Position numbers and translations under genes: made by a program. Source: a bacterium (GTDB lineage Bacteria > Patescibacteriota > Andersenbacteria > UBA10190). Taken from it: 64,000 nucleotides of DNA. Shown here piece after piece: positions 8,289-52,358 of the stretch (positions are counted from its first letter, which is position 1; every line of letters begins with the position of its first letter). The notes under the pieces were generated by a model that did not search any database, had not been told where the DNA came from, and saw only the letters and a list, made by a program, of their open reading frames with translations. The stretch spans positions 8,778 through 72,777 of the forward strand of contig JAUYKA010000035.1 in the NCBI GenBank assembly GCA_030698495.1. The letters run 5' to 3'.

Positions 8289-8753
8289 CTATATTTGAGC
8301 CTTATCCAGAACAGATTGAATACCACCCCCGCCCAACATACCAATCAACGTATTCACAACCAAGAAAGCCACCGCAATAATAATCAGCCCTACAATCGCC
8401 CTGGTAACCGTAGTCTTCGCCGCTTCCAGCTCCCCCGGCGCGTTCTCCATAAAACTCCAGTAAAACATTCTGACGCCGCCGAATATAATAAACAATATCG
8501 CCACCAGACCCGCCAACCCTAACAATGTATTATATATATTAACTAACAGTTGAATAATATCCTCAACACCGCAAGGGTTTGAAGACTCCGTGACATCACC
8601 ATTCGGCAATGTCTTATACCTTATCGGATCGCAATCAGGCAACAACTGAATCGCACTCGCCACCCCCGGTGTCGCTATAAAAATCAATCCCGCAAATCCT
8701 GCCGCCACTATTAGTAATCTTATGTTTGCTGAAATTTTTGAAAATTGGTTCAT
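8289..8753 (-). CDS. Small secreted/membrane protein with a signal peptide plus two hydrophobic segments, giving a TrbC/VirB2-pilin-like topology. Family assignment is unsure.
   Basis: MNQFSKISANIRLLIVAAGFAGLIFIATPGVASA is signal-like. Two later TM segments are present. The start ATG 8751-8753 directly abuts the GGAAATTG repeat array. Confidence 0.5.
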   Translation of the reverse strand: MNQFSKISANIRLLIVAAGFAGLIFIATPGVASAIQLLPDCDPIRYKTLPNGDVTESSNPCGVEDIIQLLVNIYNTLLGLAGLVAILFIIFGGVRMFYWSFMENAPGELEAAKTTVTRAIVGLIIIAVAFLVVNTLIGMLGGGGIQSVLDKAQI

Positions 8754-8754
8754 T

Positions 8755-8794
8755 GGAAATTCAATGGAAATTGGAAATTGATAATTGGAAATTG
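8755..8794. repeat. Tandem array of four GGAAAT(T)G octamer-type repeats filling the HIT-to-next-gene intergenic space
   Basis: ggaaattcaatggaaattggaaattgataattggaaattg is present. The same motif family recurs at about 21.73, 41.01-41.14 and 46.42-46.48 kb and as the GGGAAATTTCCC palindrome at 10615. Confidence 0.7.
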
Positions 8795-8799
8795 TCGCG

Positions 8800-9171
8800 C
8801 TAACAGCGCATCGGTCCCAGCCTCTCGCCCCCCAAAACATGGAAATGCACGTGCTTCACCACCTGCCCGGCATCATCTCCGACATTACTGATAATCCTAT
8901 ACCCGCCCGCGACTAGGCCTAAATCCCGCGCCACTTTTGTCGCGTCATGAATTAACTTGCCTATTAACAACTGATCATCATCAGTCATGTGTGCCAGTGA
9001 CACTATATGCCGCTTCGGTATTCCCAGCACATGCACCTTGGCTTTCGGAGAAATATCACGAAAAAACAACGTGTCCGTGCTCTCATATACCGCCTCCACC
9101 GGCGTTTCTCCTGTCACCATCCGGCAGAAAATACAATCCGGATCGTGCGTTTCATTCCTCCTAGCTGTCAT
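8800..9171 (-). CDS. HIT-family (histidine triad) nucleotide hydrolase
   Basis: The HVHFHVLGG histidine triad motif is present. The protein is 123 aa. Confidence 0.85.
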   Translation of the reverse strand: MTARRNETHDPDCIFCRMVTGETPVEAVYESTDTLFFRDISPKAKVHVLGIPKRHIVSLAHMTDDDQLLIGKLIHDATKVARDLGLVAGGYRIISNVGDDAGQVVKHVHFHVLGGERLGPMRC

Positions 9172-21715: not shown

Positions 21716-21729
21716 AGTATTTGGTCATT

Positions 21730-21772
21730 GGAAAATTGAAGAATTGATTGGAAATTGGAAATTGAAAATTTG
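21730..21772. repeat. GGAAA(A)TTG-type tandem repeats (ggaaaattg, gaagaattg, ggaaatt, ggaaattg, gaaaatttg) between convergent topA and parB
   Basis: Seen directly in sequence. It is the same motif family as 8755-8794. Confidence 0.65.
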
Positions 21773-21847
21773 CAGACAACTTCCCTGTTCCCTAAATAGC
21801 GTCCCTATACAAAGGAATTTAGTTTTATTGCAACCACAAATGGCCTT

Positions 21848-23278: not shown

Positions 23279-24039
23279 AGATATAAATTTAATAATTCTT
23301 CTGACAAATACTCGTAAGCTTTGGCGCCCCGAGAATCTTTAGCATACTCCAAAATCGTCCGTCCCGTTGACGGCGCTTCCGCCAGCTCCGTATTTCGAGG
23401 AATAACACTGTCAAACACATGCCCGGGAAAAGTCTTACGCACTTCTTTCACTACCCGCCGCGCCAGCGCTGTGCGCCGATCGTACATCGTCAGCACCGCT
23501 CCCAGCACTTGTATCTGTGGGTTAAGATGCTTTCGTACCATGTCTACCGTATTCAACAACTGCCGTAATCCTTCCAGCGCGTAATACTCACACTGCACCG
23601 GAATTAATACCCGGTGCGCCGCTGCCAAAGCATTTACTGTTAACAAACCCAAGCTGGGCGGACAATCAACTAATATAAAATCAAAACTGGGCGCTAAATC
23701 CTTCAATGCCCGGCGCAATCGATATTCCCGGTACGGCTGATCCATTAATTCAATTGCCGCGCCCACCAAATCAGGCGTCGCCGGAATCACATTCAAATTT
23801 TCCTGCGTCGTCGCCTGCAACGCTTCTCTGGTCTGTTTTTCTCCTAACAAAACTTCATAAACCGTCGGTGCGCCATCCGCTACCTTCACGCCCAAACCGG
23901 CCGTGGCGTTTCCCTGCGGATCCATATCCACCACTGCCGTCGCCTTGCCGGAATTGGCCAAGTAGCCACCCAAATTAACGCTGGTCGTGGTCTTACCCAC
24001 ACCGCCCTTCTGATTTACAACCGCGATTACTTCTGTCAT
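23275..24039 (-). CDS. parA: Chromosome partitioning ATPase ParA/Soj
   Basis: The deviant Walker A KGGVGKTT is present. It overlaps parB by 4 nt (ATGA). Confidence 0.9.
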   Translation of the reverse strand: MTEVIAVVNQKGGVGKTTTSVNLGGYLANSGKATAVVDMDPQGNATAGLGVKVADGAPTVYEVLLGEKQTREALQATTQENLNVIPATPDLVGAAIELMDQPYREYRLRRALKDLAPSFDFILVDCPPSLGLLTVNALAAAHRVLIPVQCEYYALEGLRQLLNTVDMVRKHLNPQIQVLGAVLTMYDRRTALARRVVKEVRKTFPGHVFDSVIPRNTELAEAPSTGRTILEYAKDSRGAKAYEYLSEELLNLYL

Positions 24040-24138
24040 CTAAAGGATTTAGTGTAATATGTATATAGTGTAAACCAAGCGAACTAAAAATAACAACTAC
24101 TTGGCAACACCGTTCTAGTTTTGTACAGTATATATCTT

Positions 24139-26230: not shown

Positions 26231-27550
26231 ATGAATAAGCCCGCAAAAAATCAGCATAAATTAGCCTTCATCGGCGCCGGTTATGTCGGTCTTGTTTCCG
26301 GCACCTGTCTGGCTGAAATCGGCCACACCGTCATTTTAGTCGACAACAACAAAGATAAAATCACTCGCCTTAATAAAGGTCAGATACCTATTTTTGAACC
26401 AGGCCTGGACGAGCTGGTAACCAAAAACGTCAAAGCAGGACGCTTGTCGTTTACCACCAGTCTCAAGGACGCTGTTAAAAATTCCGAGGCAATTTTCATC
26501 GCCGTTAACACCCCGCCTCTACCCAACGGTCGAGCCGATCTCTCTTTCGTAGCTGGTGCCGCCCGTGAAATCGCCGAGGCCGCCGACGGCTACAAAGTCG
26601 TTGTCGATAAAAGCACCGTCCCCGTACAAACCGGCGAGAGAGTGGCCGAAACAATCAAGCGCTACAATAAACGGCAAATTGATTTCGATGTTGTCAGTAA
26701 TCCCGAGTTTTTACGCGAAGGCTCCGCTATTGACGACTTTCTCCAACCCGATCGTATCGTTGTCGGCGTAGCCAACAAACGCGCCGAAAAAATCATGCGT
26801 GAAATATACTCGCCTATCGATGCTCCTTTTATTGTCACCGATGTTAAAAGCGCCGAACTGATCAAACACGCCAGTAATTCTTTCTTAGCCACTAAAATAT
26901 CTTTTGCCAACGCCGTCGCCAGAATTTGCGAACTATCCGGCGCCAACATTGATCAGGTAGTCGGCGGCATGGGACAAGACGCGCGCATCGGTAAACATTT
27001 CTTAAACGCCGGCATCGGCTATGGCGGCTCGTGTTTTCCTAAAGACGTATCTGCTTTTATCAATATCGCTGACGAGCTTGGCTACCATTTCGGCATCTTA
27101 AAAGAAGTGGAAAAAATAAATGAGCAAGCCAAACAACTTTTCTTGCAGAAAATCGAACAGGCTTTATGGGTTACTAAAGGCAAAACCATCGCTATGTGGG
27201 GCTTGGCCTTTAAGCCTAACACCGACGACATGCGCAACGCCCCTTCCATCGACATCGTTAATCAACTACACGCCGACGGCGCCGTTATTCAGGCCTACGA
27301 TCCCGCAGCTCAAGACACAGCCAAAGCTGTTTTAGGCAATAAAGTAAAATATATTAAAGACAAATACGATGCTCTGAAAAATGCCGACGCGCTGGTTATT
27401 GTCACCGACTGGAATGAATTCAAAGATCCGGATTGGAATAAAGTCGCCAAGCTTCTTCACAGTCCCATCATTATTGATGGCCGCAATATGTTCGACCCCA
27501 AAGAGATGGAAAAGAAAGGTTTTGTCTACCACTCGGTCGGCCGCGGCTAG
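26231..27550 (+). CDS. ugd: UDP-glucose 6-dehydrogenase
   Basis: The N-terminal NAD fold FIGAGYVG is present. The catalytic Cys region GYGGSCFPKD is present. The protein is 439 aa. Confidence 0.9.
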   Translation: MNKPAKNQHKLAFIGAGYVGLVSGTCLAEIGHTVILVDNNKDKITRLNKGQIPIFEPGLDELVTKNVKAGRLSFTTSLKDAVKNSEAIFIAVNTPPLPNGRADLSFVAGAAREIAEAADGYKVVVDKSTVPVQTGERVAETIKRYNKRQIDFDVVSNPEFLREGSAIDDFLQPDRIVVGVANKRAEKIMREIYSPIDAPFIVTDVKSAELIKHASNSFLATKISFANAVARICELSGANIDQVVGGMGQDARIGKHFLNAGIGYGGSCFPKDVSAFINIADELGYHFGILKEVEKINEQAKQLFLQKIEQALWVTKGKTIAMWGLAFKPNTDDMRNAPSIDIVNQLHADGAVIQAYDPAAQDTAKAVLGNKVKYIKDKYDALKNADALVIVTDWNEFKDPDWNKVAKLLHSPIIIDGRNMFDPKEMEKKGFVYHSVGRG

Positions 27551-27634
27551 AGCAGTAAATACAGTGAATACAGTAAATTAAGTAAATACAGTTACTGTAT
27601 TTACTGTACTCGCTGTATTTACTTTATTTACTGA
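27551..27634. repeat. Inverted array of GTAAATACAG/CTGTATTTAC tandem repeats forming a hairpin with about 40 bp arms between convergent ugd and the nucleotidyltransferase gene
   Basis: agtaaatacagtgaatacagtaaattaagtaaatacag is followed by its imperfect reverse complement ctgtatttactgtactcgctgtatttactttatttactg. Confidence 0.7.
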
Positions 27635-28311
27635 CTCAACACTCTCTCCGCCTCTTCTAACTGCTCCTTGTCATTAATTGGCAACCAAAAGTCAGTTTCC
27701 ACGACTTTAATTTTTGCCCCATTTTCCTGAATCATTTTCATCCACACATCCGGTGTCTCGTACTCCCCGCGCGCCGACGGCGGCACTTCCAAATCCAAAA
27801 ACGACTCATCCATCACCATTGCTCCTGTCCACACTAAATTGGAAATAAACTCCTGCGGTTTTTCCACCGACCGCACTAAATACCCCTCATCATCAGCTAC
27901 CAGCACCCCAAATTTTTCTGGGTGTTCCACCCTGTCCGCCAACGCCGCTAAGTCATGCCGCACTAATTCCTGCATTCCTTTCGGACCAAATATGTCATCC
28001 CCAACCATCCCCAACCATCTTCCAGTCACCAATTCTCTGGCGCACCGAAAAGCATGCGCCAGTCCCAACTGCTCTTCTTGGCGTACAAATTCAATCGGCC
28101 GGCCGTCATGTTCACCGCTCTTAAAATAATCCCGTATTGTCTGCTCGTGCGGCCCGCCGACCACAAACACCAAGCCATCCACTTCCGGTGGCAATAAATC
28201 CAAACTATGCTCAATCACCGGCTTATCGCCAACCGGCAATAATTGCTTTGGGCCTTCGTAATATTTGGCCATCCTTGTACCCTTCCCGGCCACCAAAACC
28301 ACTGCTTTCAT
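27628..28311 (-). CDS. Sugar-1-phosphate nucleotidyltransferase (NTP_transferase fold)
   Basis: The N-terminal GxGTR motif (LVAGKGTRM) is present. Confidence 0.75.
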   Translation of the reverse strand: MKAVVLVAGKGTRMAKYYEGPKQLLPVGDKPVIEHSLDLLPPEVDGLVFVVGGPHEQTIRDYFKSGEHDGRPIEFVRQEEQLGLAHAFRCARELVTGRWLGMVGDDIFGPKGMQELVRHDLAALADRVEHPEKFGVLVADDEGYLVRSVEKPQEFISNLVWTGAMVMDESFLDLEVPPSARGEYETPDVWMKMIQENGAKIKVVETDFWLPINDKEQLEEAERVLSQ

Positions 28312-28317
28312 AGCTTT

Positions 28318-28436
28318 GTATTTAGTATTTAGTATTCCGTATATAGTATATTACAAAAATGTTGTCCACAAGAGTTATGACAAAAAAATCAACGATGCTA
28401 AATACTATATACAAAATACGAAATACTAAATACTAG
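28318..28436. repeat. Large inverted repeat with about 35 bp arms built from TATTTAG heptamers and a 44 nt spacer
   Basis: gtatttagtatttagtattccgtatatagtatatt pairs with agtatttagtatttcgtattttgtatatagtatttagc (the reverse complement of 28397-28436). It lies between the FG-GAP protein stop and the nucleotidyltransferase start. Confidence 0.7.
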
Positions 28437-31400
28437 ACCGTCGCCGCCCTAGCCGCCGCCAGCCCGCCGGACTGCGGTGTCACCGGCATTAAATCGGCTG
28501 TCATTTGCACCGTTGTGTCATGTTCAGACTTCATTTGCACATTCTCCTTGGCAAAATTCGCATAGCCCGGCTTTGTCACCGTAATCATATAAGATCCCGC
28601 CGGCGGCAGGGCAAAAAACTTACCCTGATTGTTCGTCACTCGTGTCATCACCAGCCGCTTAGTCTTCTGATTGAACAGTCGTACGACCGCCAAATCCAGC
28701 GGTATATGGGTAATGGCATCCCTCACCTGGCCGTAAGCCGGACGCATCCTCACCTCCAAAGCAATCTTAACAATTACCAATAGTATATACAGACCTTCAA
28801 TCACCAGATACAGCCAATTGAGCGCCAAGAACACCAACGCTGTATTTAACAAAGCTCCCGCTAAAAACAACGGCCACGACAACAACCGTCCCAATCGCTG
28901 GACCGTCTGCCAAATATGGAGAACACTCACCCGCACCGACGTTACTTCCGCCGCTGTCGGTTTCATTGGTATCACAATAGACAGTGGCTGATTAGCGTCT
29001 TTTACCGTTAATTTTCCGCCGGTATAAACAATATTTTCCGCCGGCGCCAACGACCGACCCGCCGGCGCGAATGTAAACCCTTCTGCCTTTACTCCGATTG
29101 TGTACTGACCAACCGGAAAGAAAGTACTAAACGCACCTTGAGCATTTGTTCTCTCTGTTGCCCTTAATTTACCGGTCGCGTCGTAAACCAACACAGAAAC
29201 GCCGGCCATCGGCTCATTAGTCCGATAATGCACCACCTTACCTTGAGGTTGCATCCTGCCCGTAGCCAAACTGACAGAGTCATCTTTTTTATTACGTCTC
29301 TGATTTATAGCCTGTACTAACCTTTCCGCTAATAAGATGGCCATTGAGCCCAGAGTCAAAAACAGTAAAAACAAATCGGCCGGTTTCAGTATATTGCGAA
29401 TCAGCGCCGACTCCTCTTTAACCGGCTGCGGCGGAGGCGTTTCTTGCTTTACAATATTAAAGTCCACCGTCTCTTCAGTAGGCAAGCTCCTGGTTGCGAC
29501 AGTTACTGTATCCGACGCAGACGCACCGTTCAAATCACGCGCCGTCAAAACAAAAATATATGTTTCGTTTTCATCTCCCGCCGAAAACGAAGCGGTGGCT
29601 GTCCTGTCCGACATTAACTTTACTGCCGGTCCGCTTAACTGACGCCAGCTGAAGTTAAGCGTACTGGTATCGCCCGGATCCGGATCGAAAGACGCTGTAC
29701 CGTCCAAAATTACCAGTGCCCTAGGGTTAACCACCTGGTCCGGACCGGCATCAACTGCCGGCGGTCGATTGTTTTTTAACACTGGCGCTAAATCCGGCGC
29801 CGCCGGTTTCGGAGAAACAGCCGGAGTCGGTGTTATGGAAGGCAATCCGGTCACTTGTGCCGACGTTGCCGGCGTCGGACTGGGAGTCGGGGTTGCCCCG
29901 GACAACGGCGTTGCCACCGGGACTGTCGCGGTGGAACCATCCGTCTTGCCCCTCACACTGGGCCAAGCTCCGATATTGCCAAAATTATCTTCGGCAACCA
30001 GCTTAAAAGTGTAATATTTATCGGCTGCCAAGCTGGTAATAGTTGTTGTTGTCGCCTCTGTATCATCGAGATCGCTATCGTCATTAACGTCCCAAACATC
30101 CGAACGCAATTCCAGCACCGCGGTGTTATCCGTACCGTAATACACCTTATAAACGAAAGTGTTACTGTCGGTAGCCCTATTCCAGCTCAACACCGCTTTC
30201 TCTGGATCAATACTAACCAGTCGCAGTGCTCCTGCGCCAGTAGGCGGCGCGTTATCCACCCGAAAACCAGAACTGACCGCGGCTAACCCTACATCTCTAT
30301 CATCACGAGGAATAATTCTTAAATATACCTTGGCCGTATCGCCACTTATCGGTCCGCCTGTATTTTCCGTTGATTTCGTATCCCAAGTAAACGTCAGCTT
30401 CACACTGTCGTTTTGATCGGTATCGATATGATCCACCGTTCCTACCTGATAACCATTTTTATTTACCAAATCCACACTGCCGTTATCCGCGGTAACTTTA
30501 GTCAGCCACGGTTTATACCAATGTTGGCCGTCAACAGAATATTGAACCCTAATCCGCGTCGGATCGTCATCGCCATCGGAAATTTCGCTGGTGAATTGCA
30601 CCGCCCCGCTACCGGTAGTGCTTTGCACTATTTCCCCCGGAGCCATCGCGCTAGGCTTGGTACGCAATCTTTCGTAAGCGTAAACAATGCCGCGCTGTAA
30701 ATCCGCTGTCACTATGTCACTGTCTCCGTCGCCGTCCAAATCGGCCGCCGCCACGCCATACACGCTCTGCAAATTTGTCGCGATTGTCTGTTGAGATTTA
30801 AACTGTCCCGTCCCATCGTTTTCGTACCAATAAACGCTATTCTTATCCTGATCCGCCACTAATAAGTCCAAGTTACCATCGCCGTTCAAATCAACCGTCG
30901 CCACCGTTTTCGCGTCAATACTGTTAGCCACCACCATGCGCCCATAACGAGTATAACTTGATTCCGTCGGTCCCGACTTATATAATACCAACTCATCCAC
31001 GTTATCATCGGCCGTAGCAATCCACGTACTGCCATTTTCCGGATCGCCCACGACAATATGCGTCCGATTCGCATTGCTATCGTCAACATCCACTCTAGTC
31101 CAAGTCGCCCCGTCCGACGTATCCCAGCGCTGTAAGCCGTCATCACCACCGGTAACAATATCCTTATAGCCGTTATGGTTCAAATCACCTATCGCCACCG
31201 CCGTTACTTTACTATCAGCATTTAAAACCGTTGCCGAAAACGTCCCGCTGCCGTTATTGATCCATGTGCGCAACACAAAAGGACCGCTCAAGTCCCCGCT
31301 ACTGCCGGAAGTGATAATATCAATCGCGCCATCACCGTTTATGTCCCCCGCCGCGGCCACCGCGTCCCGCCCGGTCGCCCCACCCAAAGACTGGGACGAA

Positions 31401-31888
31401 AACTCAAAATCACCGTTGTTTTTAAACCAAGCCACACTGGGCGAATCTCCCTTGAAATTAACCAAGATATCACCGTCACCGTCGCCGTCCAAATCGGCAA
31501 TTTGTACCCGCTCACTTTGTTTATCGCTCACCACGTGCAAATCAAACTTAAAATCTCCCGTGTTGGCGTAAATCTTAATGCCATCAATACCGCCGGTAAC
31601 AATATCCCTATCTCCGTCACCATCAATATCATACGCGGCCACTCCTTGCACGCCCACGGCACTGCCCGACTCTCCCACCACATGCGGCGTAAATTCCAGC
31701 GCCCCCGCTTGCGGTACCTCTATTAACCAACGCCAGCCGCTTATAACCAGCGACACAACCAACACTAAACTCACCGCGGTACGCACCGCCGGCATCACTC
31801 GGCTAAACCTCGCTCTACGGCTTCTGACTCTTAACCTCGCCCGCAAAACCACACGCTCTCTGCTTCCATGGGAGCTTTTTCTTTTCAT
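28433..31888 (-). CDS. Very large surface protein of 1151 aa with FG-GAP/VCBS-like repeats, beta-sandwich (FN3/PKD-like) domains, C-terminal TM segments and CarboxypepD_reg-like beta domains
   Basis: Repeated DxDGDGxxD / FG-GAP-like blocks are present (DIDGDGDRDIV, DLDGDGDGDIL, DLNGDGNLDLL, DLDGDGDSDIV). Hydrophobic helices lie near residues 880-1000. Confidence 0.7.
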   Translation of the reverse strand: MKRKSSHGSRERVVLRARLRVRSRRARFSRVMPAVRTAVSLVLVVSLVISGWRWLIEVPQAGALEFTPHVVGESGSAVGVQGVAAYDIDGDGDRDIVTGGIDGIKIYANTGDFKFDLHVVSDKQSERVQIADLDGDGDGDILVNFKGDSPSVAWFKNNGDFEFSSQSLGGATGRDAVAAAGDINGDGAIDIITSGSSGDLSGPFVLRTWINNGSGTFSATVLNADSKVTAVAIGDLNHNGYKDIVTGGDDGLQRWDTSDGATWTRVDVDDSNANRTHIVVGDPENGSTWIATADDNVDELVLYKSGPTESSYTRYGRMVVANSIDAKTVATVDLNGDGNLDLLVADQDKNSVYWYENDGTGQFKSQQTIATNLQSVYGVAAADLDGDGDSDIVTADLQRGIVYAYERLRTKPSAMAPGEIVQSTTGSGAVQFTSEISDGDDDPTRIRVQYSVDGQHWYKPWLTKVTADNGSVDLVNKNGYQVGTVDHIDTDQNDSVKLTFTWDTKSTENTGGPISGDTAKVYLRIIPRDDRDVGLAAVSSGFRVDNAPPTGAGALRLVSIDPEKAVLSWNRATDSNTFVYKVYYGTDNTAVLELRSDVWDVNDDSDLDDTEATTTTITSLAADKYYTFKLVAEDNFGNIGAWPSVRGKTDGSTATVPVATPLSGATPTPSPTPATSAQVTGLPSITPTPAVSPKPAAPDLAPVLKNNRPPAVDAGPDQVVNPRALVILDGTASFDPDPGDTSTLNFSWRQLSGPAVKLMSDRTATASFSAGDENETYIFVLTARDLNGASASDTVTVATRSLPTEETVDFNIVKQETPPPQPVKEESALIRNILKPADLFLLFLTLGSMAILLAERLVQAINQRRNKKDDSVSLATGRMQPQGKVVHYRTNEPMAGVSVLVYDATGKLRATERTNAQGAFSTFFPVGQYTIGVKAEGFTFAPAGRSLAPAENIVYTGGKLTVKDANQPLSIVIPMKPTAAEVTSVRVSVLHIWQTVQRLGRLLSWPLFLAGALLNTALVFLALNWLYLVIEGLYILLVIVKIALEVRMRPAYGQVRDAITHIPLDLAVVRLFNQKTKRLVMTRVTNNQGKFFALPPAGSYMITVTKPGYANFAKENVQMKSEHDTTVQMTADLMPVTPQSGGLAAARAATV

Positions 31889-34782: not shown

Positions 34783-34818
34783 CCAAGCGGAAATTCAACG
34801 CTCTAGTATAACGCACCA

Positions 34819-34997
34819 GCAAGCGACGCCACGACTTTTGCTCTTGGCGACCGTCTGAAGGCTTGTCGGCATGGTCCCCGCCGTTATTTTGCCGCGGCAA
34901 AATAACGGCGGGGCGACAAAACTTCAGTCGAGCGCAGCCCGCCCGCAGGGGGCGGGCAAGTGTGTCGTCCAAGAGTGAAAGTTGTGGCGCCGCTTGC
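34819..34997. repeat. Palindromic element copy A (179 nt), ending 12 nt from the rarA stop
   Basis: The roughly 33 bp imperfect outer stem has G-T/T-G wobbles. The core is gaccgtctgaagg...ggtccccgcc-gttattttgccgcggcaaaataac-ggcgggg...cttcagtcgagcgcag-cccgcccgcagggggcgggc-aagtgtgtcg. Confidence 0.75.
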
Positions 34998-35008
34998 TAA
35001 TTAAAATT

Positions 35009-38174: not shown

Positions 38175-38621
38175 ATGCTTTCCGCCGTCCACACTGTAAC
38201 TAGTCTCCCCTTCGCCATCTATCTCGGTAACATCCCGGCAATTCTCATCGCTGCTTTTCTGTGGCATTTTTTGGCCGACTCAATTCTGCATTGGAATATA
38301 GATCCCAACAAACCGGACTCTTATCCTTACTTCTTTGTCAGTCTGGATGTCATTGGCGGACTAGTCGTAGCCTACTTTCTCCTTGGTCCCGCTATGTTCA
38401 CCCCCCGCTTTCTGGCCGCTATTATCGGCGGCAACCTGCCGGATGTCATCCACACCGTCTGGTACTTACTACCACCAAACAAGCGCCAACACTGGTTCGG
38501 CTGGGCCAAATGGTGGTTTGATTTTCACCACCGCGTCCAAAACGAAACCAAAAATATACTTGCCGGACTAGCTACTCAAGCCTTGGCTGTAATCACTGCA
38601 ATTTATCTCATCCTTAAGTAA
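38175..38621 (+). CDS. Hypothetical polytopic membrane protein (148 aa)
   Basis: It has four hydrophobic segments. No known motif was seen. Confidence 0.45.
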   Translation: MLSAVHTVTSLPFAIYLGNIPAILIAAFLWHFLADSILHWNIDPNKPDSYPYFFVSLDVIGGLVVAYFLLGPAMFTPRFLAAIIGGNLPDVIHTVWYLLPPNKRQHWFGWAKWWFDFHHRVQNETKNILAGLATQALAVITAIYLILK

Positions 38622-38665
38622 ACACAGGTCTGTATTTACTTTATTTACTGTGTTCTGTATTTACT
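38618..38665. repeat. CTGTATTTAC-family repeats with a flanking hairpin (gtaaacacag...ctgtgtt) between convergent genes
   Basis: gtaaacacaggtctgtatttactttatttactgtgttctgtatttactatact is the same unit as at 27551-27634. Confidence 0.6.
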
Positions 38666-38669
38666 ATAC

Positions 38670-39716
38670 TCACCCCGGCAGCTCTTCCGTGTTATTCTTA
38701 GCAACAAATATATCCGCCAATAAAATACTGATAACCGTAGCAATCGGCACCGACAATATAATTCCCACCACTCCGGCTAAACGCGCGCCCAATAAAATTC
38801 CGACTATCGTCACCAACGGATGCAAACCGATTGCTTTCCTCATGATATTAGGCACCAGCACATGCGCTTCAAATTGCTGAATAATAATATACATAGCCAG
38901 CACCACCAACCCCATCACCCAAGACATGGTGAACCCAACAGCAACCCCGGGAATAGCCGCCAATACCGGGCCAATATACGGCACAACCTCCAAAATTCCG
39001 GCAATCAACCCCAGCAACAAAGCGTATGGCACACCCAAAATCCAAAGACCAGTCCCTACCAGCAATCCGATAATTATTCCCAACGACACTTGCGCCAACA
39101 CCCATTTCCCCACTTTTTGCTGCGCCCGGTCAATTGCTCTTTCCGCGTAAGCCACGTGCATTGCCGGCGTCACCAGCCGTACAAATTTTTTCAAAGCTTC
39201 GCGCTCCACCACCAAATAAAACGTTAGCACAAACACAAACACTACCGTGAAAACCCCCGAAACAAATGTTCTAGTCTGCTGAAATATATTCACGCCTAAA
39301 TTCGCCAGATTGTCTCCGAATCTGCTTATCCCCGTCTGCAAATAACCCACGACTGCCGCCCGATCCACTTCCGGCACAAAAGTTATAAAACGATGCGCCA
39401 CTTGTATTATCGAAGGAACCGCTTGCGCTAGTTGCTGACTCTGTGTAACTAACGGCTCAACCATCAAAGACAACACCCCGGCCAATAATGCCAATACCAT
39501 TATATATATCAACGCCACCGAAATCATCCGCGGGATACGCCGCTGCTGCAGCCAATTAACCACCGGCTCAATCGCCGTCGCCAGCACCACCGCCGCAAAT
39601 AACATTAATAAAATATCGAAAATCAGATACAAAAACCATGCTCCGATCAGAATAATAATCACCCGGAAAATCGTCCCCGAGGTTATATCTATACTCATTC
39701 TGTTTCCGTTACCCAT
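38670..39716 (-). CDS. AI-2E family (PerM/UPF0118) membrane transporter
   Basis: The protein is 348 aa with about 8 TM helices and the characteristic long hydrophilic loop. Confidence 0.6.
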   Translation of the reverse strand: MGNGNRMSIDITSGTIFRVIIILIGAWFLYLIFDILLMLFAAVVLATAIEPVVNWLQQRRIPRMISVALIYIMVLALLAGVLSLMVEPLVTQSQQLAQAVPSIIQVAHRFITFVPEVDRAAVVGYLQTGISRFGDNLANLGVNIFQQTRTFVSGVFTVVFVFVLTFYLVVEREALKKFVRLVTPAMHVAYAERAIDRAQQKVGKWVLAQVSLGIIIGLLVGTGLWILGVPYALLLGLIAGILEVVPYIGPVLAAIPGVAVGFTMSWVMGLVVLAMYIIIQQFEAHVLVPNIMRKAIGLHPLVTIVGILLGARLAGVVGIILSVPIATVISILLADIFVAKNNTEELPG

Positions 39717-41013: not shown

Positions 41014-41137
41014 TTAATTTTCAATTTTCAATTTCCATTGAATTATCAATGACGCAATTTTCAAACACTAAAACTTTTCATCGTTGTGCTTGGAAATTGA
41101 TAATTGATTATTATATGGAAATTGGAAATTGGAAATT
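41014..41137. repeat. GGAAATTG-family repeat arrays in both orientations. These are aattttcaattttcaatttcc at 41014-41036 and ggaaattg at 41092, then three tandem ggaaatt units at 41117-41137 that overlap the glyQS stop codon.
   Basis: Seen directly in sequence. It fills the glyQS-M16 peptidase intergenic region. ORF-track entry 41104-41328 over it is judged spurious. Confidence 0.7.
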
Positions 41138-42518
41138 ATATCGACAGTTTATCTGTTAAATATCCACCAACCTTGTCTATATTAATCCTCTCCTGCTCCA
41201 TACTATCCCTCTCTCTCACTGTCACCTGCTTATCTTCCAAGGAGTCAAAATCAACCGTTACGCAATACGGCGTGCCAATTTCATCCTGGCGCCGATACCG
41301 CTTGCCGATTGATTGCGTCTCATCGTAATCAACGCGCAGACTTTTTGCCAATTCATCAGCCAACGGCTCGGCCAGCTTTATAAGTTCCGGCTTCTTCGAC
41401 AAAGGCAGTACTGCCACCTGATACGGCGCCAAATTTGGTTTCAGCTTTAGCACTACCCGCTTATCTCCCTTAACTTCTTCCTCGTAGTAAGCATCCATCA
41501 ACACAAATAATACCAGCCGCGACAAACCGAATGTCGGTTCAATCACATGCGGATAAAATTTTTCTCCCGTTTTTGTATCCGTCACCTGCAGATCCTGACC
41601 CGTAGCCTGCGCGTGATTCTTCAAATCGTAATCGGCACGATAAGCCAGCCCGAACATTTCTTTACTGCCCCAAGACGACGCATACTCAATATCCACCGTC
41701 CGTCTGGAATAATGCGCCCGTTCTTCAGTCGCCTGCTCCCGCAAACGCAAGTTTTCTTTTTTGATCCCCACTTCCTCCGTCACCCATTTTTGCATCTCCC
41801 CAAGCCACATCTCAAAATACTTCTCCCAATCAGCTTCTCTCACAAAATACTCAAACTCCATCAAATCGAACTCCAGCGTGCGGAAAATAAAATTACCCGG
41901 CGTGATTTCATTGCGAAACGCCTTGCCGACTTGCGCTATGCCAAACGGTAAGGATTTCCGCATTGAATCCATAATCAATTTAAAATCTACAAACATCGAT
42001 TGCGCCAGCTCCCCCCGCAAATAAACAATCTGTTTATTACTTTCAACCGTTCCCAACGAAGTCTCAAACAGTAAGTTGAATTGACGCGCTTCGGTAAAAT
42101 CATGTTTACCACAATTCGGACAGACAATATTGTTATCAGCGCTAATTAAAACGGACATTTCCTCTATCGTCATCGCGTCCGTATTCCTATCAGGCAATAT
42201 GTTCTTTATCAGATCGTCCGCCCGCCAGCGATTATGGCAGGACTTACAATCCACCATCGGGTCGTTAAAATTATCAACGTGATGCGAAGCTTTCCACACT
42301 TCCGGATTCATTAAAATCGCCGCGTCCAAACCAACCATATCCCGCCGGCTCTCCACAAAATACTTCCACCAGGCATCCCGCAAATTATTTTTTAACTGCA
42401 CTCCCAACGGACCGAAATCCCACGAATTGCGCAACCCGCCGTAAATCGCCGACCCCGGATACACAAACCCGCGTCTTTTGCATAACTCAACTATTTTTTC
42501 CAGAGAAACTTTTTCCAT
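41136..42518 (-). CDS. glyQS: Glycyl-tRNA synthetase, single-chain (alpha2) type
   Basis: The N-terminus VELCKRRGFVYPGSAIYGG is present. Class II motifs are present. The protein is 460 aa. Confidence 0.9.
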   Translation of the reverse strand: MEKVSLEKIVELCKRRGFVYPGSAIYGGLRNSWDFGPLGVQLKNNLRDAWWKYFVESRRDMVGLDAAILMNPEVWKASHHVDNFNDPMVDCKSCHNRWRADDLIKNILPDRNTDAMTIEEMSVLISADNNIVCPNCGKHDFTEARQFNLLFETSLGTVESNKQIVYLRGELAQSMFVDFKLIMDSMRKSLPFGIAQVGKAFRNEITPGNFIFRTLEFDLMEFEYFVREADWEKYFEMWLGEMQKWVTEEVGIKKENLRLREQATEERAHYSRRTVDIEYASSWGSKEMFGLAYRADYDLKNHAQATGQDLQVTDTKTGEKFYPHVIEPTFGLSRLVLFVLMDAYYEEEVKGDKRVVLKLKPNLAPYQVAVLPLSKKPELIKLAEPLADELAKSLRVDYDETQSIGKRYRRQDEIGTPYCVTVDFDSLEDKQVTVRERDSMEQERINIDKVGGYLTDKLSI

Positions 42519-51367: not shown

Positions 51368-52105
51368 TTAAGTAGTTCGCACCATCGGCACCGTCTCGGC
51401 CACCACCATCGCATAATACCTCATCGCCGCCAGCACTTGTCTGCTTTCCTCCTTGGTCGCACTAAGCTGTAATGCCTTTTGCGGATACCTACCCAGCCAG
51501 CGCAGCGCGCGCAACAAACGCGGCGGCAGTGACAACTGCGTCCCCACAAAAGAATCGTGACACGACAAACATCGCCAACCTCCGGCTTGGGGATTCAATA
51601 TCACCGCTTCGTCCGGCTGGTTTCTGCCGCACGCTTGACACCGATTTAAATCCGGCTGCAAACCCGCACAACGTAGGGCATAACCGGCCACGGCTACCTC
51701 TAGAAAATCCCGCTTGGGCGCTGGCAACTCCGGAAACATCTGACAAGCATGATACAAAGCATCAAACAACTCCACCTGCACTTCTTCCTCTTCAAAAAGC
51801 CCCAAGACTAATCGTGCCAGCATCTCCGCGTGCTCCCACGCCTGCACATCACCGCGCAAAGCCAGATGATCATCCACCGTCTCCACCGCCGCCAGATATT
51901 TCCGGTCCGCCGTACCCGTTACAATCGCCAATACGTAAGTCAAAGGCTCCAAGTGCCCCCCACGCCGTGACGGTATCCGACGCACACCTTTAGCCAGCAC
52001 TCGCAGCAAACCTTGCTGCCGGGAAAACAGTGTCACCAGCCGATCCGCTTCATTAATGTCGCGACGCGCTAAAACCAGCGCGTGCAGCTTCTCCCGCTTA
52101 TTCAT
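51368..52105 (-). CDS. recO: DNA repair protein RecO
   Basis: The N-terminal OB-fold region LHALVLARRDINEADRLVTLFSRQQGLLRVLAKGVRR is present. A C4 zinc motif (CQACG...CLSC) is present. Confidence 0.8.
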   Translation of the reverse strand: MNKREKLHALVLARRDINEADRLVTLFSRQQGLLRVLAKGVRRIPSRRGGHLEPLTYVLAIVTGTADRKYLAAVETVDDHLALRGDVQAWEHAEMLARLVLGLFEEEEVQVELFDALYHACQMFPELPAPKRDFLEVAVAGYALRCAGLQPDLNRCQACGRNQPDEAVILNPQAGGWRCLSCHDSFVGTQLSLPPRLLRALRWLGRYPQKALQLSATKEESRQVLAAMRYYAMVVAETVPMVRTT

Positions 52106-52183
52106 TCATATATTATAGCACATACCCTCTCCACTCCCCGTCCTCTTTCCTCCTCCCGGAAGGGAATAAACTAACCTATGAGC

Positions 52184-52353
52184 AAAAATTTTCTAATCTT
52201 CTGCTCTTAGCGACCGTCTGAAGGACTGCCAGCCTGGTCCCCGCCTAAATTTTGCCGCGGCAAAATTTAGGCGGGGTGGCAGGCCTTCAGCCGAGTAACG
52301 CCCGCGCTGGGGCGGGCGTTATGTGTCGCTAAGAGCAGAAGATTAGAAAATTT
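52184..52353. repeat. Palindromic element copy B (170 nt), ending 6 nt from the ileS stop
   Basis: A perfect 29 bp outer stem (aaaaattttctaatcttctgctcttagcgac / gtcgctaagagcagaagattagaaaattt) encloses the same core as copy A. The core reads ccgtctgaagg..ggtccccgcc-taaattttgccgcggcaaaattta-ggcggggt..ccttcagccgag..cgcccgcgctggggcgggcg..gtgtcg. Confidence 0.75.
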
Positions 52354-52358
52354 CATCA

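Follow-up and report, generated by a model that had tools for sequence, protein, structure and literature searches.

An inverted pair of heptamer arrays filling an intergenic gap in an Andersenbacteria genome

We describe an AT-rich inverted repeat that fills the gap between two minus-strand genes in a 64 kb stretch of DNA (hereafter the window; positions 8,778 to 72,777 of contig JAUYKA010000035.1, assembly GCA_030698495.1) from a bacterium of the Andersenbacteria, a lineage of the candidate phyla radiation (CPR) or Patescibacteria. The upstream gene codes for a giant surface protein with FG-GAP, PKD and CarboxypepD_reg domains and the downstream one for a sugar-1-phosphate nucleotidyltransferase, and the two arms of the repeat are tandem arrays of degenerate heptamers. 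Like other short AT-rich repeat modules in this genome, about 79 kb of which were examined overall, the element fills a gap between genes, and brackets of the same kind, with a bias in orientation relative to stop and start codons, recur in metagenomic contigs. The reading that we tentatively favor is that of a doublet akin to the REPINs (the hairpin-forming doublets of repetitive extragenic palindromic, or REP, sequences), built from heptamer arrays akin to the short tandemly repeated repetitive (STRR) sequences of cyanobacteria, which was inserted into a tight operon junction and would act there as an intercistronic RNA stem-loop. Judging from the modelled folds and the genomic comparisons presented below, an RNA hairpin between the two genes is most likely what the element forms, ahead of a promoter, an operator or a classical terminator.

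Anatomy and predicted fold of the element

The gap (28312-28432, 121 nt) is bounded upstream by the surface-protein gene (28433-31888, minus strand, 1151 aa) and downstream by the nucleotidyltransferase gene (27628-28311, minus strand, 227 aa, with an NTP_transferase domain), both of which were recognized by domain searches. An inverted-repeat search returns two arms of 32 nt each (28318-28349 and 28402-28433), 29/32 positions of which are paired (91% complementary) across a spacing of 52 nt; because the arms are periodic, it also returns registers shifted by 7 nt. Tandem Repeats Finder resolves the left arm (28318-28349) into 4.6 copies of GTATTTA and the right arm (28398-28435) into 5.4 copies of CTAAATA, both with a period of 7. 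An earlier note on this DNA, made from its letters without database searches, had reported an inverted repeat of heptamers at this place, and the repeat searches confirm its location, arms and build. The arms of 35 and 40 nt with a 44-nt spacer that were given there are the same feature, of which the description as near-perfect fits the 32-nt core only, the innermost few bases of the longer arms pairing solely in a shifted register. The inverted repeat is real and highly non-random: the 18-mer GTATTTAGTATTTAGTAT, searched with up to three mismatches, has seven matches, every one of them at this locus, against an expectation of 0.01.

Read on the sense (minus) strand, the parts follow one another in a compact order: the TAG stop codon of the FG-GAP gene (28433-28435), lying within the outermost heptamer; a U-rich 5' arm, which is a GUAUUUA-type heptamer array (28402-28435); the 52-nt spacer (28350-28401), predicted to form a hairpin loop with a small internal stem; an A-rich 3' arm of AAUACUA/CUAAAUA-type heptamers (28318-28349), which ends 6 nt before the AUG; and the hexamer AAAGCT just ahead of the nucleotidyltransferase start codon (28309-28311). 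The overlap of the right arm with the FG-GAP stop, already remarked upon in the earlier note, holds to the base, in that the G of the TAG is the first base of the U-rich arm. Two promoter-like hexamers are also found on the minus strand, namely the TTGTCA previously pointed out in the spacer (28378-28383) and a -10-like TAATAT at the junction of loop and arm (28348-28353). No Shine-Dalgarno (SD) motif is present within 20 nt upstream of the nucleotidyltransferase start.

The sense RNA of the element is predicted to fold with an energy of -43.8 kcal/mol (z = -5.9; 0/200 shuffled sequences are as stable), and the same segment as single-stranded DNA gives a z of -6.2, the stem having a GC content of 22%. 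Thus, a strong hairpin- or cruciform-capable element, as had been supposed, indeed spans the whole intergenic gap, and because it does so an effect on the expression of the downstream sugar-nucleotide gene is plausible. Each arm is a direct array of heptamers devoid of internal dyad symmetry. An odd unit, GTATATA, occupies a mirrored position in both arms, and since the variant units are mirrored between them the arms can be regarded as copies of each other. A search of the whole window with Rfam 15 gives a tRNA-Leu as the sole match, and a permissive search of 28150-28600 returns as its best matches plant microRNA hairpins at chance level (18.7 bits against a threshold of 144).

Related repeat modules in the same genome

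AT-rich islands with short tandem units occur in many gaps of the window. Among periods of 4-12 nt, 7 is the sole enriched one, with 5 arrays against 0-1 for each of the other periods; Tandem Repeats Finder detects at least 11 heptamer arrays in the 64 kb and another 7 in the 8 kb that follow, and their unit families include GTATTTA, GGAAATT, AGTAGCA, ACTACTT, TATCTTA and AAACTTA. The module under study is present in three copies: the two arms and an array that immediately precedes an epimerase gene some 6 kb beyond the end of the window (L175, 1997-2048). The latter is identical to the right arm at 28/30 positions and shares with it the order of the variant units (TATATAC, AAAATAC, xAxATAC, TAAATAC). 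To judge from these sequences, the arm, about 30 nt long, is a module dispersed in the genome and not just a microsatellite. A partial relative of it, ACTATATAC...ACTAAAT, lies directly upstream of parA (24037-24082, minus strand). The earlier note had proposed looking through the genome for further TATTTAG arrays; a related array is the third copy upstream of the epimerase gene, and ACTATATAC and TACTAAAT, when searched for, proved not to be genome-wide motifs.

A sister element composed of GGAAATT/AATTTCC heptamers (41015-41138, minus strand) has two 36-nt arms (41015-41050 and 41103-41138), which are 86% complementary across a 52-nt spacer, and a fold z of -6.2. Its stop/start geometry is that of the element described above: the stop of a class II aminoacyl-tRNA synthetase gene stands at the outer end of one arm, and a peptidase M16 gene starts, with its ATG, 11 nt past the other. 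The GGAAATT module has four copies, with singlets at 8742-8800 and 21722-21778. Compared by eye, the 52-nt spacers of the two elements share only CATCGTTG, at differing offsets and on opposite strands, and on this comparison we treat them as not homologous; the spacer of the element under study has no second copy within the window.

Hairpins of CTGTATTTA nonamers are found at three loci (27553-27633, 38619-38672 and L174 4571-4641), all between convergent genes, and have loops of 1-18 nt, the 5' arm being rich in A and the 3' arm in U; they probably serve as terminators for both directions. The first of them (27553-27633), detected with Tandem Repeats Finder, has two 40-nt arms of CAGTAAATA/TACTGTATT nonamers with a GTATTTA core and a fold z of -7.5; the UDP-glucose dehydrogenase and nucleotidyltransferase genes converge on it, and it overlaps the stop of the latter. 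Like the module under study, the GGAAATT and nonamer families occur both as singlets and as inverted doublets. Terminators of the ordinary kind, consisting of a GC-rich hairpin and a T-run, occur elsewhere in the window.

In other loci, long AT-rich inverted repeats number 7 in about 380 kb of Andersenbacteria and 1 in about 340 kb of Latescibacterota; as they are few there, their high density in this genome appears to be lineage-specific. Heptamer arrays as such are present in these other Andersenbacteria and Latescibacterota loci. They include AATGACC arrays in Andersenbacteria (L009 10721-10751 and 13758-13788; L011 12616-12646) and GGGACTG arrays in Latescibacterota (L033/L034 14527-14556). 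We take AATGACC to be the complement of the cyanobacterial STRR2 unit TTGGTCA, and GGGACTG presumably is that of the STRR1 unit CCCCAGT; with these identities, the same heptamer units recur across distant phyla.

The same junction in related genomes

A nucleotidyltransferase of identical sequence is encoded in the metagenome-assembled genome (MAG) GCA_034372665.1 (Candidatus Andersenbacteria) and in two Logan assemblies, and almost all of the related loci belong to Andersenbacteria or other CPR bacteria. The window and three further loci (L001, L002 and L003), making up four assemblies, are 100% identical across the gap and have the spacer in the same orientation. Beyond these, we compared orthologous loci from 44 genomes in GTDB and 8 closer contigs. 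The order of a gene for a protein ending in CarboxypepD_reg followed by the nucleotidyltransferase gene is kept in about 25 Andersenbacteria loci (61-76% protein identity); in many of these the gap is just 8-20 nt, and in none does it contain the repeat, which was not found at the orthologous junctions of about 30 related Andersenbacteria. Covariation analysis of the stem is impossible because the repeat is unconserved at the orthologous loci.

The tight junctions of the relatives read, for example, TAA ACAGAGCT ATG and TAA CCAAACCT ATG. When the end of the gap in the window, ...AATAC AAAGCT ATG, is set beside the 8-nt junction ACAGAGCT ATG, the AAAGCT matches. Since AAAGCT ATG is kept right after the 3' arm, the 116-nt element looks as though it had been added at the boundary between the stop and the junction. 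These sequences suggest an ancestral tight operon junction, probably of a co-translated pair, into which the element was added.

Among the nearest relatives (78-83% amino-acid identity) the gaps are variable, measuring 11-170 nt, and only one of them (L050) has a long inverted repeat (30-45 nt). Its sequence is unlike that of the element under study; it brackets the same gap and occludes the ATG in the predicted fold (z = -5.1). In another relative (L053, 81% identical) tandem CTAATAAG units are placed upstream of the nucleotidyltransferase gene, with an inverted copy downstream of it (250-316 and 985-1010). The upstream neighbor in this locus is a different gene, coding for a protein of the 23S rRNA IVP family (compare also L050 2530-2560), a context that may point to an involvement of such arrays in rearrangements. 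The gaps at the nucleotidyltransferase junction, as far as these sequences allow one to judge, turn over fast yet repeatedly take a structured, repeat-built form.

The same architecture in metagenomes

At least 120 metagenome contigs contain the 15-mer GTATTTAGTATTTAG without a mismatch, a number that by itself is unremarkable at that database size. We analyzed the first 80 of these contigs, which have a GC content of 0.28-0.65, using crude calls of open reading frames (ORFs). In them, GTATTTAG arrays from diverse genomes form the same kind of inverted bracket as that in the window: an inverted partner array is present in 11/80 loci, 10 times downstream of the GTATTTA array and once upstream, so that the majority has the handedness of the element described above. 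The spacers of these brackets measure 4-124 nt, and their arms adjoin the ends of the flanking genes with gaps of about 1-25 nt. The flanking genes are co-directional or convergent; none of the 9 brackets with two placed flanking ORFs is clearly in a divergent pair, and none of the 7 AT-rich hairpins of the window is in a divergent (promoter-only) gap. Every one of these 7 hairpins and 9 brackets touches at least one stop codon, and a hairpin touching a stop codon is the common denominator of all members.

The arrays are also oriented in a non-uniform manner with respect to the genes. After stop codons the GUAUUUAG orientation prevails (14 vs 5), and before start codons the CUAAAUAC orientation (12 vs 2), usually 3-14 nt ahead of the ATG and, in most of the examples displayed, with no visible SD motif before the start. 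The combined bias is 26 vs 7, or 18 vs 6 when inverted pairs are removed; because it is strand-specific, it points to the RNA level. Several of the brackets have loops of 4-20 nt and stand 3-16 nt from the downstream start. Since such short-loop brackets leave no room for a promoter of their own, read-through transcripts must carry the hairpin. The earlier note had held that its proposal would fall if no transcript ends or starts mapped here and the repeat were unique in the genome and unconserved in relatives; on the second of these points the outcome is divided. The exact sequence of the element is indeed private to its lineage; the kind of element, on the other hand, recurs in this genome and in many others.

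Several of the metagenomic loci have features of their own. In one contig with a GC content of 0.55 (L119 5020-5219) an inverted GTATTTAG bracket reaches over the 3' ends of two convergent genes by 17 nt. Each of these genes ends in K-W-(S/G)-K-V-S-T-stop, and either an inverted duplication copied the gene ends together with the array, or the array homogenized them. Another (L116) has a tandem satellite of about 56 nt with a GTATTTAG-type heptamer array in each unit. In a third (L111 6437-6500) a GTATTTAG array follows a stop, and its terminal TAGTATAAT is some 9 nt upstream of a tRNA gene, which indicates that the end of an array can create what in sequence is a perfect -10 box.

Possible action of the element and competing explanations

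An action as an intercistronic stem-loop, which we favor tentatively, could be pictured as follows. A doublet of the AT-rich module, each copy consisting of about 30 nt of degenerate GTATTTA heptamers, would have arrived by insertion, or arisen by inverted duplication, precisely at a junction that had 8 nt between stop and start. As there is no terminator in the gap, transcription of the FG-GAP gene would continue through it, and in the transcript the U-rich 5' arm, beginning at the stop codon, would pair with the A-rich 3' arm, reaching to 6 nt before the AUG, in a stem of about 32 bp. Such a stem-loop would loop out the inserted 116 nt and bring the stop beside the start. To the upstream mRNA it would give a stable 3' hairpin, which might be an obstacle to exonucleases or a substrate for a double-strand RNase; with respect to the downstream gene, the stem might cover the A-rich leader of the nucleotidyltransferase cistron, which has no SD sequence, until the leader is opened by a ribosome that terminates or in a transcript that has no 5' arm. 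In the modelled fold, the probability that the leader (-12..-1) is unpaired goes from 0.12 to 0.34 with a ribosome placed on the stop codon. The anatomy, the module copies, the absence from relatives, the recurrence across genomes with its orientation bias and the predicted stability are thus shown, whereas co-transcription, folding of the hairpin in the cell and consequences for mRNA stability or translation are inferred.

Several observations weigh against a function of this kind. The modelled unmasking is not seen in the sister element, in which the leader is already open at 0.74, and the neighbors of the sister elements are functionally unrelated, which fits passive insertion as well as a coupling device. 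In a test on the 9 co-directional elements, the G.U-compatible mismatches numbered 4 on the sense strand and 6 on the antisense strand, with 17 compatible with neither, and give no signal of selection. The element is unconserved at this junction, so that it cannot be an essential regulator. The four same-species assemblies are identical, so neither constraint nor its absence is visible at the population level, and the coverage of this genome, at about 79 kb, makes the copy numbers small.

Indeed, we consider it almost as likely that the element is a neutral or selfish by-product: AT-rich arrays produced by replication slippage would have acquired an inverted copy through template switching, or the module would have spread in the manner of REPINs or of miniature inverted-repeat transposable elements (MITEs), the hairpin being tolerated with no selected host function. 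Its absence from about 30 orthologous junctions, the rapid turnover of the gaps even at 78-83% amino-acid identity, the lack of an RNA-strand pattern in the arm mismatches and the unrelated genes around the sister elements all accord with such an origin. Likewise, the mirrored variant units and the third 28/30 copy point to copying and not to convergent selection, and the apparent presence or absence of another palindrome of the window between assemblies of the same population suggests that such insertions are ongoing. However, the 26 vs 7 orientation bias at stops and starts is not expected from orientation-blind mutation, which would also not produce a partner that lies downstream in 10/11 pairs; moreover, divergent gaps are avoided. 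The element further lacks the target-site duplication and the conserved internal sequence of a MITE, and the 79 kb examined showed no transposase. The stem-loop and the selfish views would be compatible if the element spreads selfishly and is tolerated by folding away.

An action at the level of DNA, with a promoter in the spacer driving the nucleotidyltransferase gene and the arrays binding a regulator or nucleoid protein or extruding a gating cruciform, seems improbable to us. It could draw on the TTGTCA and the -10-like TAATAT within or at the edge of the spacer, as well as on the fact that the -10-like hexamers (TAATAT here and GATAAT in the sister element) end 36-38 nt before the ATG, at the junction of the loop and the 3' arm. 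Related arrays also stand upstream of two nucleotide-sugar genes, those for the nucleotidyltransferase and the epimerase, and heptamer repeats near promoters in Nostoc modulate the access of regulators (bioRxiv 10.1101/2022.06.06.494920). Yet a consensus scan recovers no sense-strand promoter, the only sigma-70 match in the gap being on the plus strand and pointing away from the gene start, and TTGTCA and TAATAT are separated by 24 nt and not by 16-18; the promoter that the earlier note had considered here is thereby left without support. Since the array orientation that precedes starts (CTAAATAC) has no TAnnnT hexamer, the 3' arm is unlikely to be a promoter, and the TAGTAT-bearing orientation is rare at that position (2 vs 12). 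The spacers of 4-124 nt in other genomes leave no fixed promoter module. Nor does an operator specific to this gene, which had also been proposed, agree with the lack of the repeat at the same junction in about 30 relatives or with contiguous 7-bp units that are out of helical phase and face different sides of the helix.

We regard as decidedly less probable still that the element is a terminator or insulator of the FG-GAP gene, i.e., an unconventional long AU-rich hairpin that would stop or pause RNA polymerase without a U-tract. The hairpin does begin at the stop codon, and related AT-rich hairpins are found between convergent genes, where terminators are expected. But those hairpins are arranged in the opposite way, A-rich in the 5' arm and U-rich in the 3' arm with a loop measuring 1-18 nt, whereas here the U-rich arm is the 5' one and the A-rich arm the 3' one, the loop is of 52 nt, the stem of 22% GC and there is no U-run. 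A scan for intrinsic terminators across 28312-28432 on both strands finds no site, the stem being followed by AAAGCUAUG. Ordinary GC-rich hairpins with T-runs serve elsewhere in this genome, and metagenomic brackets that leave no room for a downstream promoter imply read-through. As a whole, the interpretation as promoter, operator or terminator with which the earlier note had come forward is mostly unsupported.

That the arms could be the sites of an inverton, an invertible promoter switch for the surface-protein or sugar genes working by arm-to-arm site-specific inversion, can be set aside as highly improbable: inverted repeats do flank a short AT-rich segment beside a surface-protein gene, but the spacer has the same orientation in all four independent assemblies (assembled sequences, not raw reads), there is no recombinase among the 18 neighboring genes scanned, no convincing spacer promoter is directed toward a gene start in either direction, and a segment of 52 nt is, to our knowledge, far shorter than the known invertible ones.

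Flanking genes and other features of the window

The best NCBIfam similarities of the nucleotidyltransferase are to the archaeal GlmU, AglF and RmlA types. The AglF-like nucleotidyltransferase gene and that for an AglM/TuaD-like UDP-glucose dehydrogenase (together 26231-28311) adjoin the giant surface-protein gene (28433-31888), a pairing reminiscent of archaeal S-layer glycosylation genes. The surface protein may be glycosylated, which would link the flanking genes functionally. Other neighbors are housekeeping genes such as leuS and parAB.

The window also contains a GC-rich palindromic element (52106-52358; also 34800-35000 and L174 168-344) with perfect outer arms of 29 nt, an inner palindrome CCCCGCC...TTTTGCCGCGGCAAAA...GGCGGGG and a predicted fold of -138 kcal/mol. 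The NCBI MAG contig from this population lacks about 153 nt of it, and TGCTC(T/A)TAG flanks the gap; either the palindrome is a mobile element that is polymorphic for its presence, or the assembly has collapsed at this point. Between leuS and a gene for an MgsA/RarA-type AAA+ ATPase there is a related copy. The genes of the window are mostly on the minus strand, and the GC skew, computed over 1-kb segments, nearly always comes to about -0.2 to -0.35 and has no turning point.

About one quarter of the window genes have an SD-like motif. A TATAAT-like hexamer precedes the ATG by 6-9 nt in many genes (e.g., at 1231, 8800-9171, 38175, 38670-39716, 51368-52105 and 28433-31888), and to go by these sequences leaderless mRNAs, or mRNAs with a very short leader, may be widespread in this bacterium.

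Implications

Almost nothing is known of transcription-unit organization and translation initiation in uncultured, small-genome CPR bacteria. If these hairpins are functional, they would be a simple, evolvable device that sets the relative output of neighboring genes, in this case the gene for a giant surface protein and those for enzymes from which its sugars probably come. If they are selfish or neutral, CPR genomes harbor miniature repeats resembling REPINs, for which STRR-like heptamers can serve as building blocks, and two classes of repeats so far described separately would become linked. A broader proposal, which we put forward as doubtful, is that inverted brackets of heptamer arrays constitute either an unrecognized, widespread class of post-transcriptional elements or a new form of miniature mobile DNA: in CPR and in unrelated, even high-GC genomes, a U-rich (GUAUUUAG)n would follow the stop and a (CUAAAUAC)n serve as an SD-less leader, with a fixed handedness, and the hairpin would tie the downstream cistron to the upstream stop. 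A single locus is of modest interest; it is the orientation bias across unrelated metagenomic genomes that is the part most worth pursuing.

Comparison with known systems

The REPINs are doublets of REP sequences that form hairpins, with spacers of 71 and 110 bp in Pseudomonas fluorescens SBW25 (Bertels & Rainey 2011, PMC3116915; PMC3337134). They have in common with the element under study that short dispersed extragenic modules occur as singlets and as inverted doublets with a spacer (52 bp here), that hairpins are predicted in single-stranded DNA or mRNA, and that several families per genome lie beside gene ends. Unlike REP sequences, which are GC-rich imperfect palindromes with a GTAG head, the arms described here are AT-rich tandem heptamers; the families have 3-4 copies each in 79 kb, the spacer is unconserved between copies, and no REP-associated tyrosine transposase (RAYT; IS200/IS605-like) was seen in the approximately 79 kb.

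The STRR heptanucleotide repeats of cyanobacteria were reportedly described by Mazel et al. in 1990, and Jackman and Mulligan are said to have described structured but variable nif intergenic regions in 1995. The canonical STRR units are CCCCAGT, TTGGTCA and CAACAGT, none of which is matched by the GTATTTA unit of the element under study. With 4.6 and 5.4 copies, its arms do have the three or more tandem 7-nt copies in non-coding DNA that define an STRR. Heptamer repeats are also found near start codons in Nostoc (bioRxiv 10.1101/2022.06.06.494920). The shared features are intergenic tandem 7-nt units of several families per genome, often near starts or promoters, which vary between close relatives and are capable of forming stem-loops; the differences, besides the unit sequence, are the phylum and the inverted duplication of the array, which brackets the whole gap.

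A further parallel is offered by the TAACTGA direct repeats of marine Beggiatoaceae, Cyanobacteria and Bacteroidetes, comprising 169 direct sets and one indirect repeat (MacGregor 2015, PMC4679880). As with the 3' arm and the 12 metagenome loci, these heptamers are placed a few nucleotides upstream of starts without a canonical ribosome-binding site, and like this kind of element they are orientation-specific, spread across unrelated phyla and suspected of a post-transcriptional role. In contrast, the unit here is CTAAATA, and inverted pairing is the main feature.

Correia or NEMIS elements of Neisseria and other MITEs measure about 100-150 bp, have terminal inverted repeats of 26-32 bp, lie near genes and are co-transcribed with them; the hairpins of Correia/NEMIS are processed by RNase III and can affect the expression of neighboring genes. 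The element under study resembles them in unit size, terminal inverted repeats and insertion close to genes. It differs in lacking a conserved internal sequence and in having tandem arrays as arms, and on inspection of its flanks (CTTT|G...C|TAGA) no TA or other target-site duplication was found. We also considered an integron attC site and rejected it: inspection of the arm ends reveals no GTTRRRY/RYYYAAC, and the neighbors are housekeeping genes.

A REP sequence within 15 nt of a stop codon reportedly lowers the translation of the upstream gene, according to work of Liang, Rudd and Deutscher from 2015. Intercistronic stem-loops take part in the selective RNA processing and stabilization of the cip-cel operon of Clostridium cellulolyticum (PMC4423207). 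Such stable structures, between cistrons or right after a stop, set the relative output of genes, and the element described here is placed alike; its stem differs in being unusually long, AU-rich and built of repeats, and it may have a comparable function. REP stabilizers and REPINs (PMC3116915) are further systems of this manner of action, and roles in translation are suspected for heptamer repeats in leaders (PMC4679880; bioRxiv 10.1101/2022.06.06.494920). In the literature we found no description of such elements in CPR bacteria, and we class this one as a variant that joins known kinds of intergenic repeats, namely a REPIN-like doublet made of STRR-like heptamers in a CPR bacterium.

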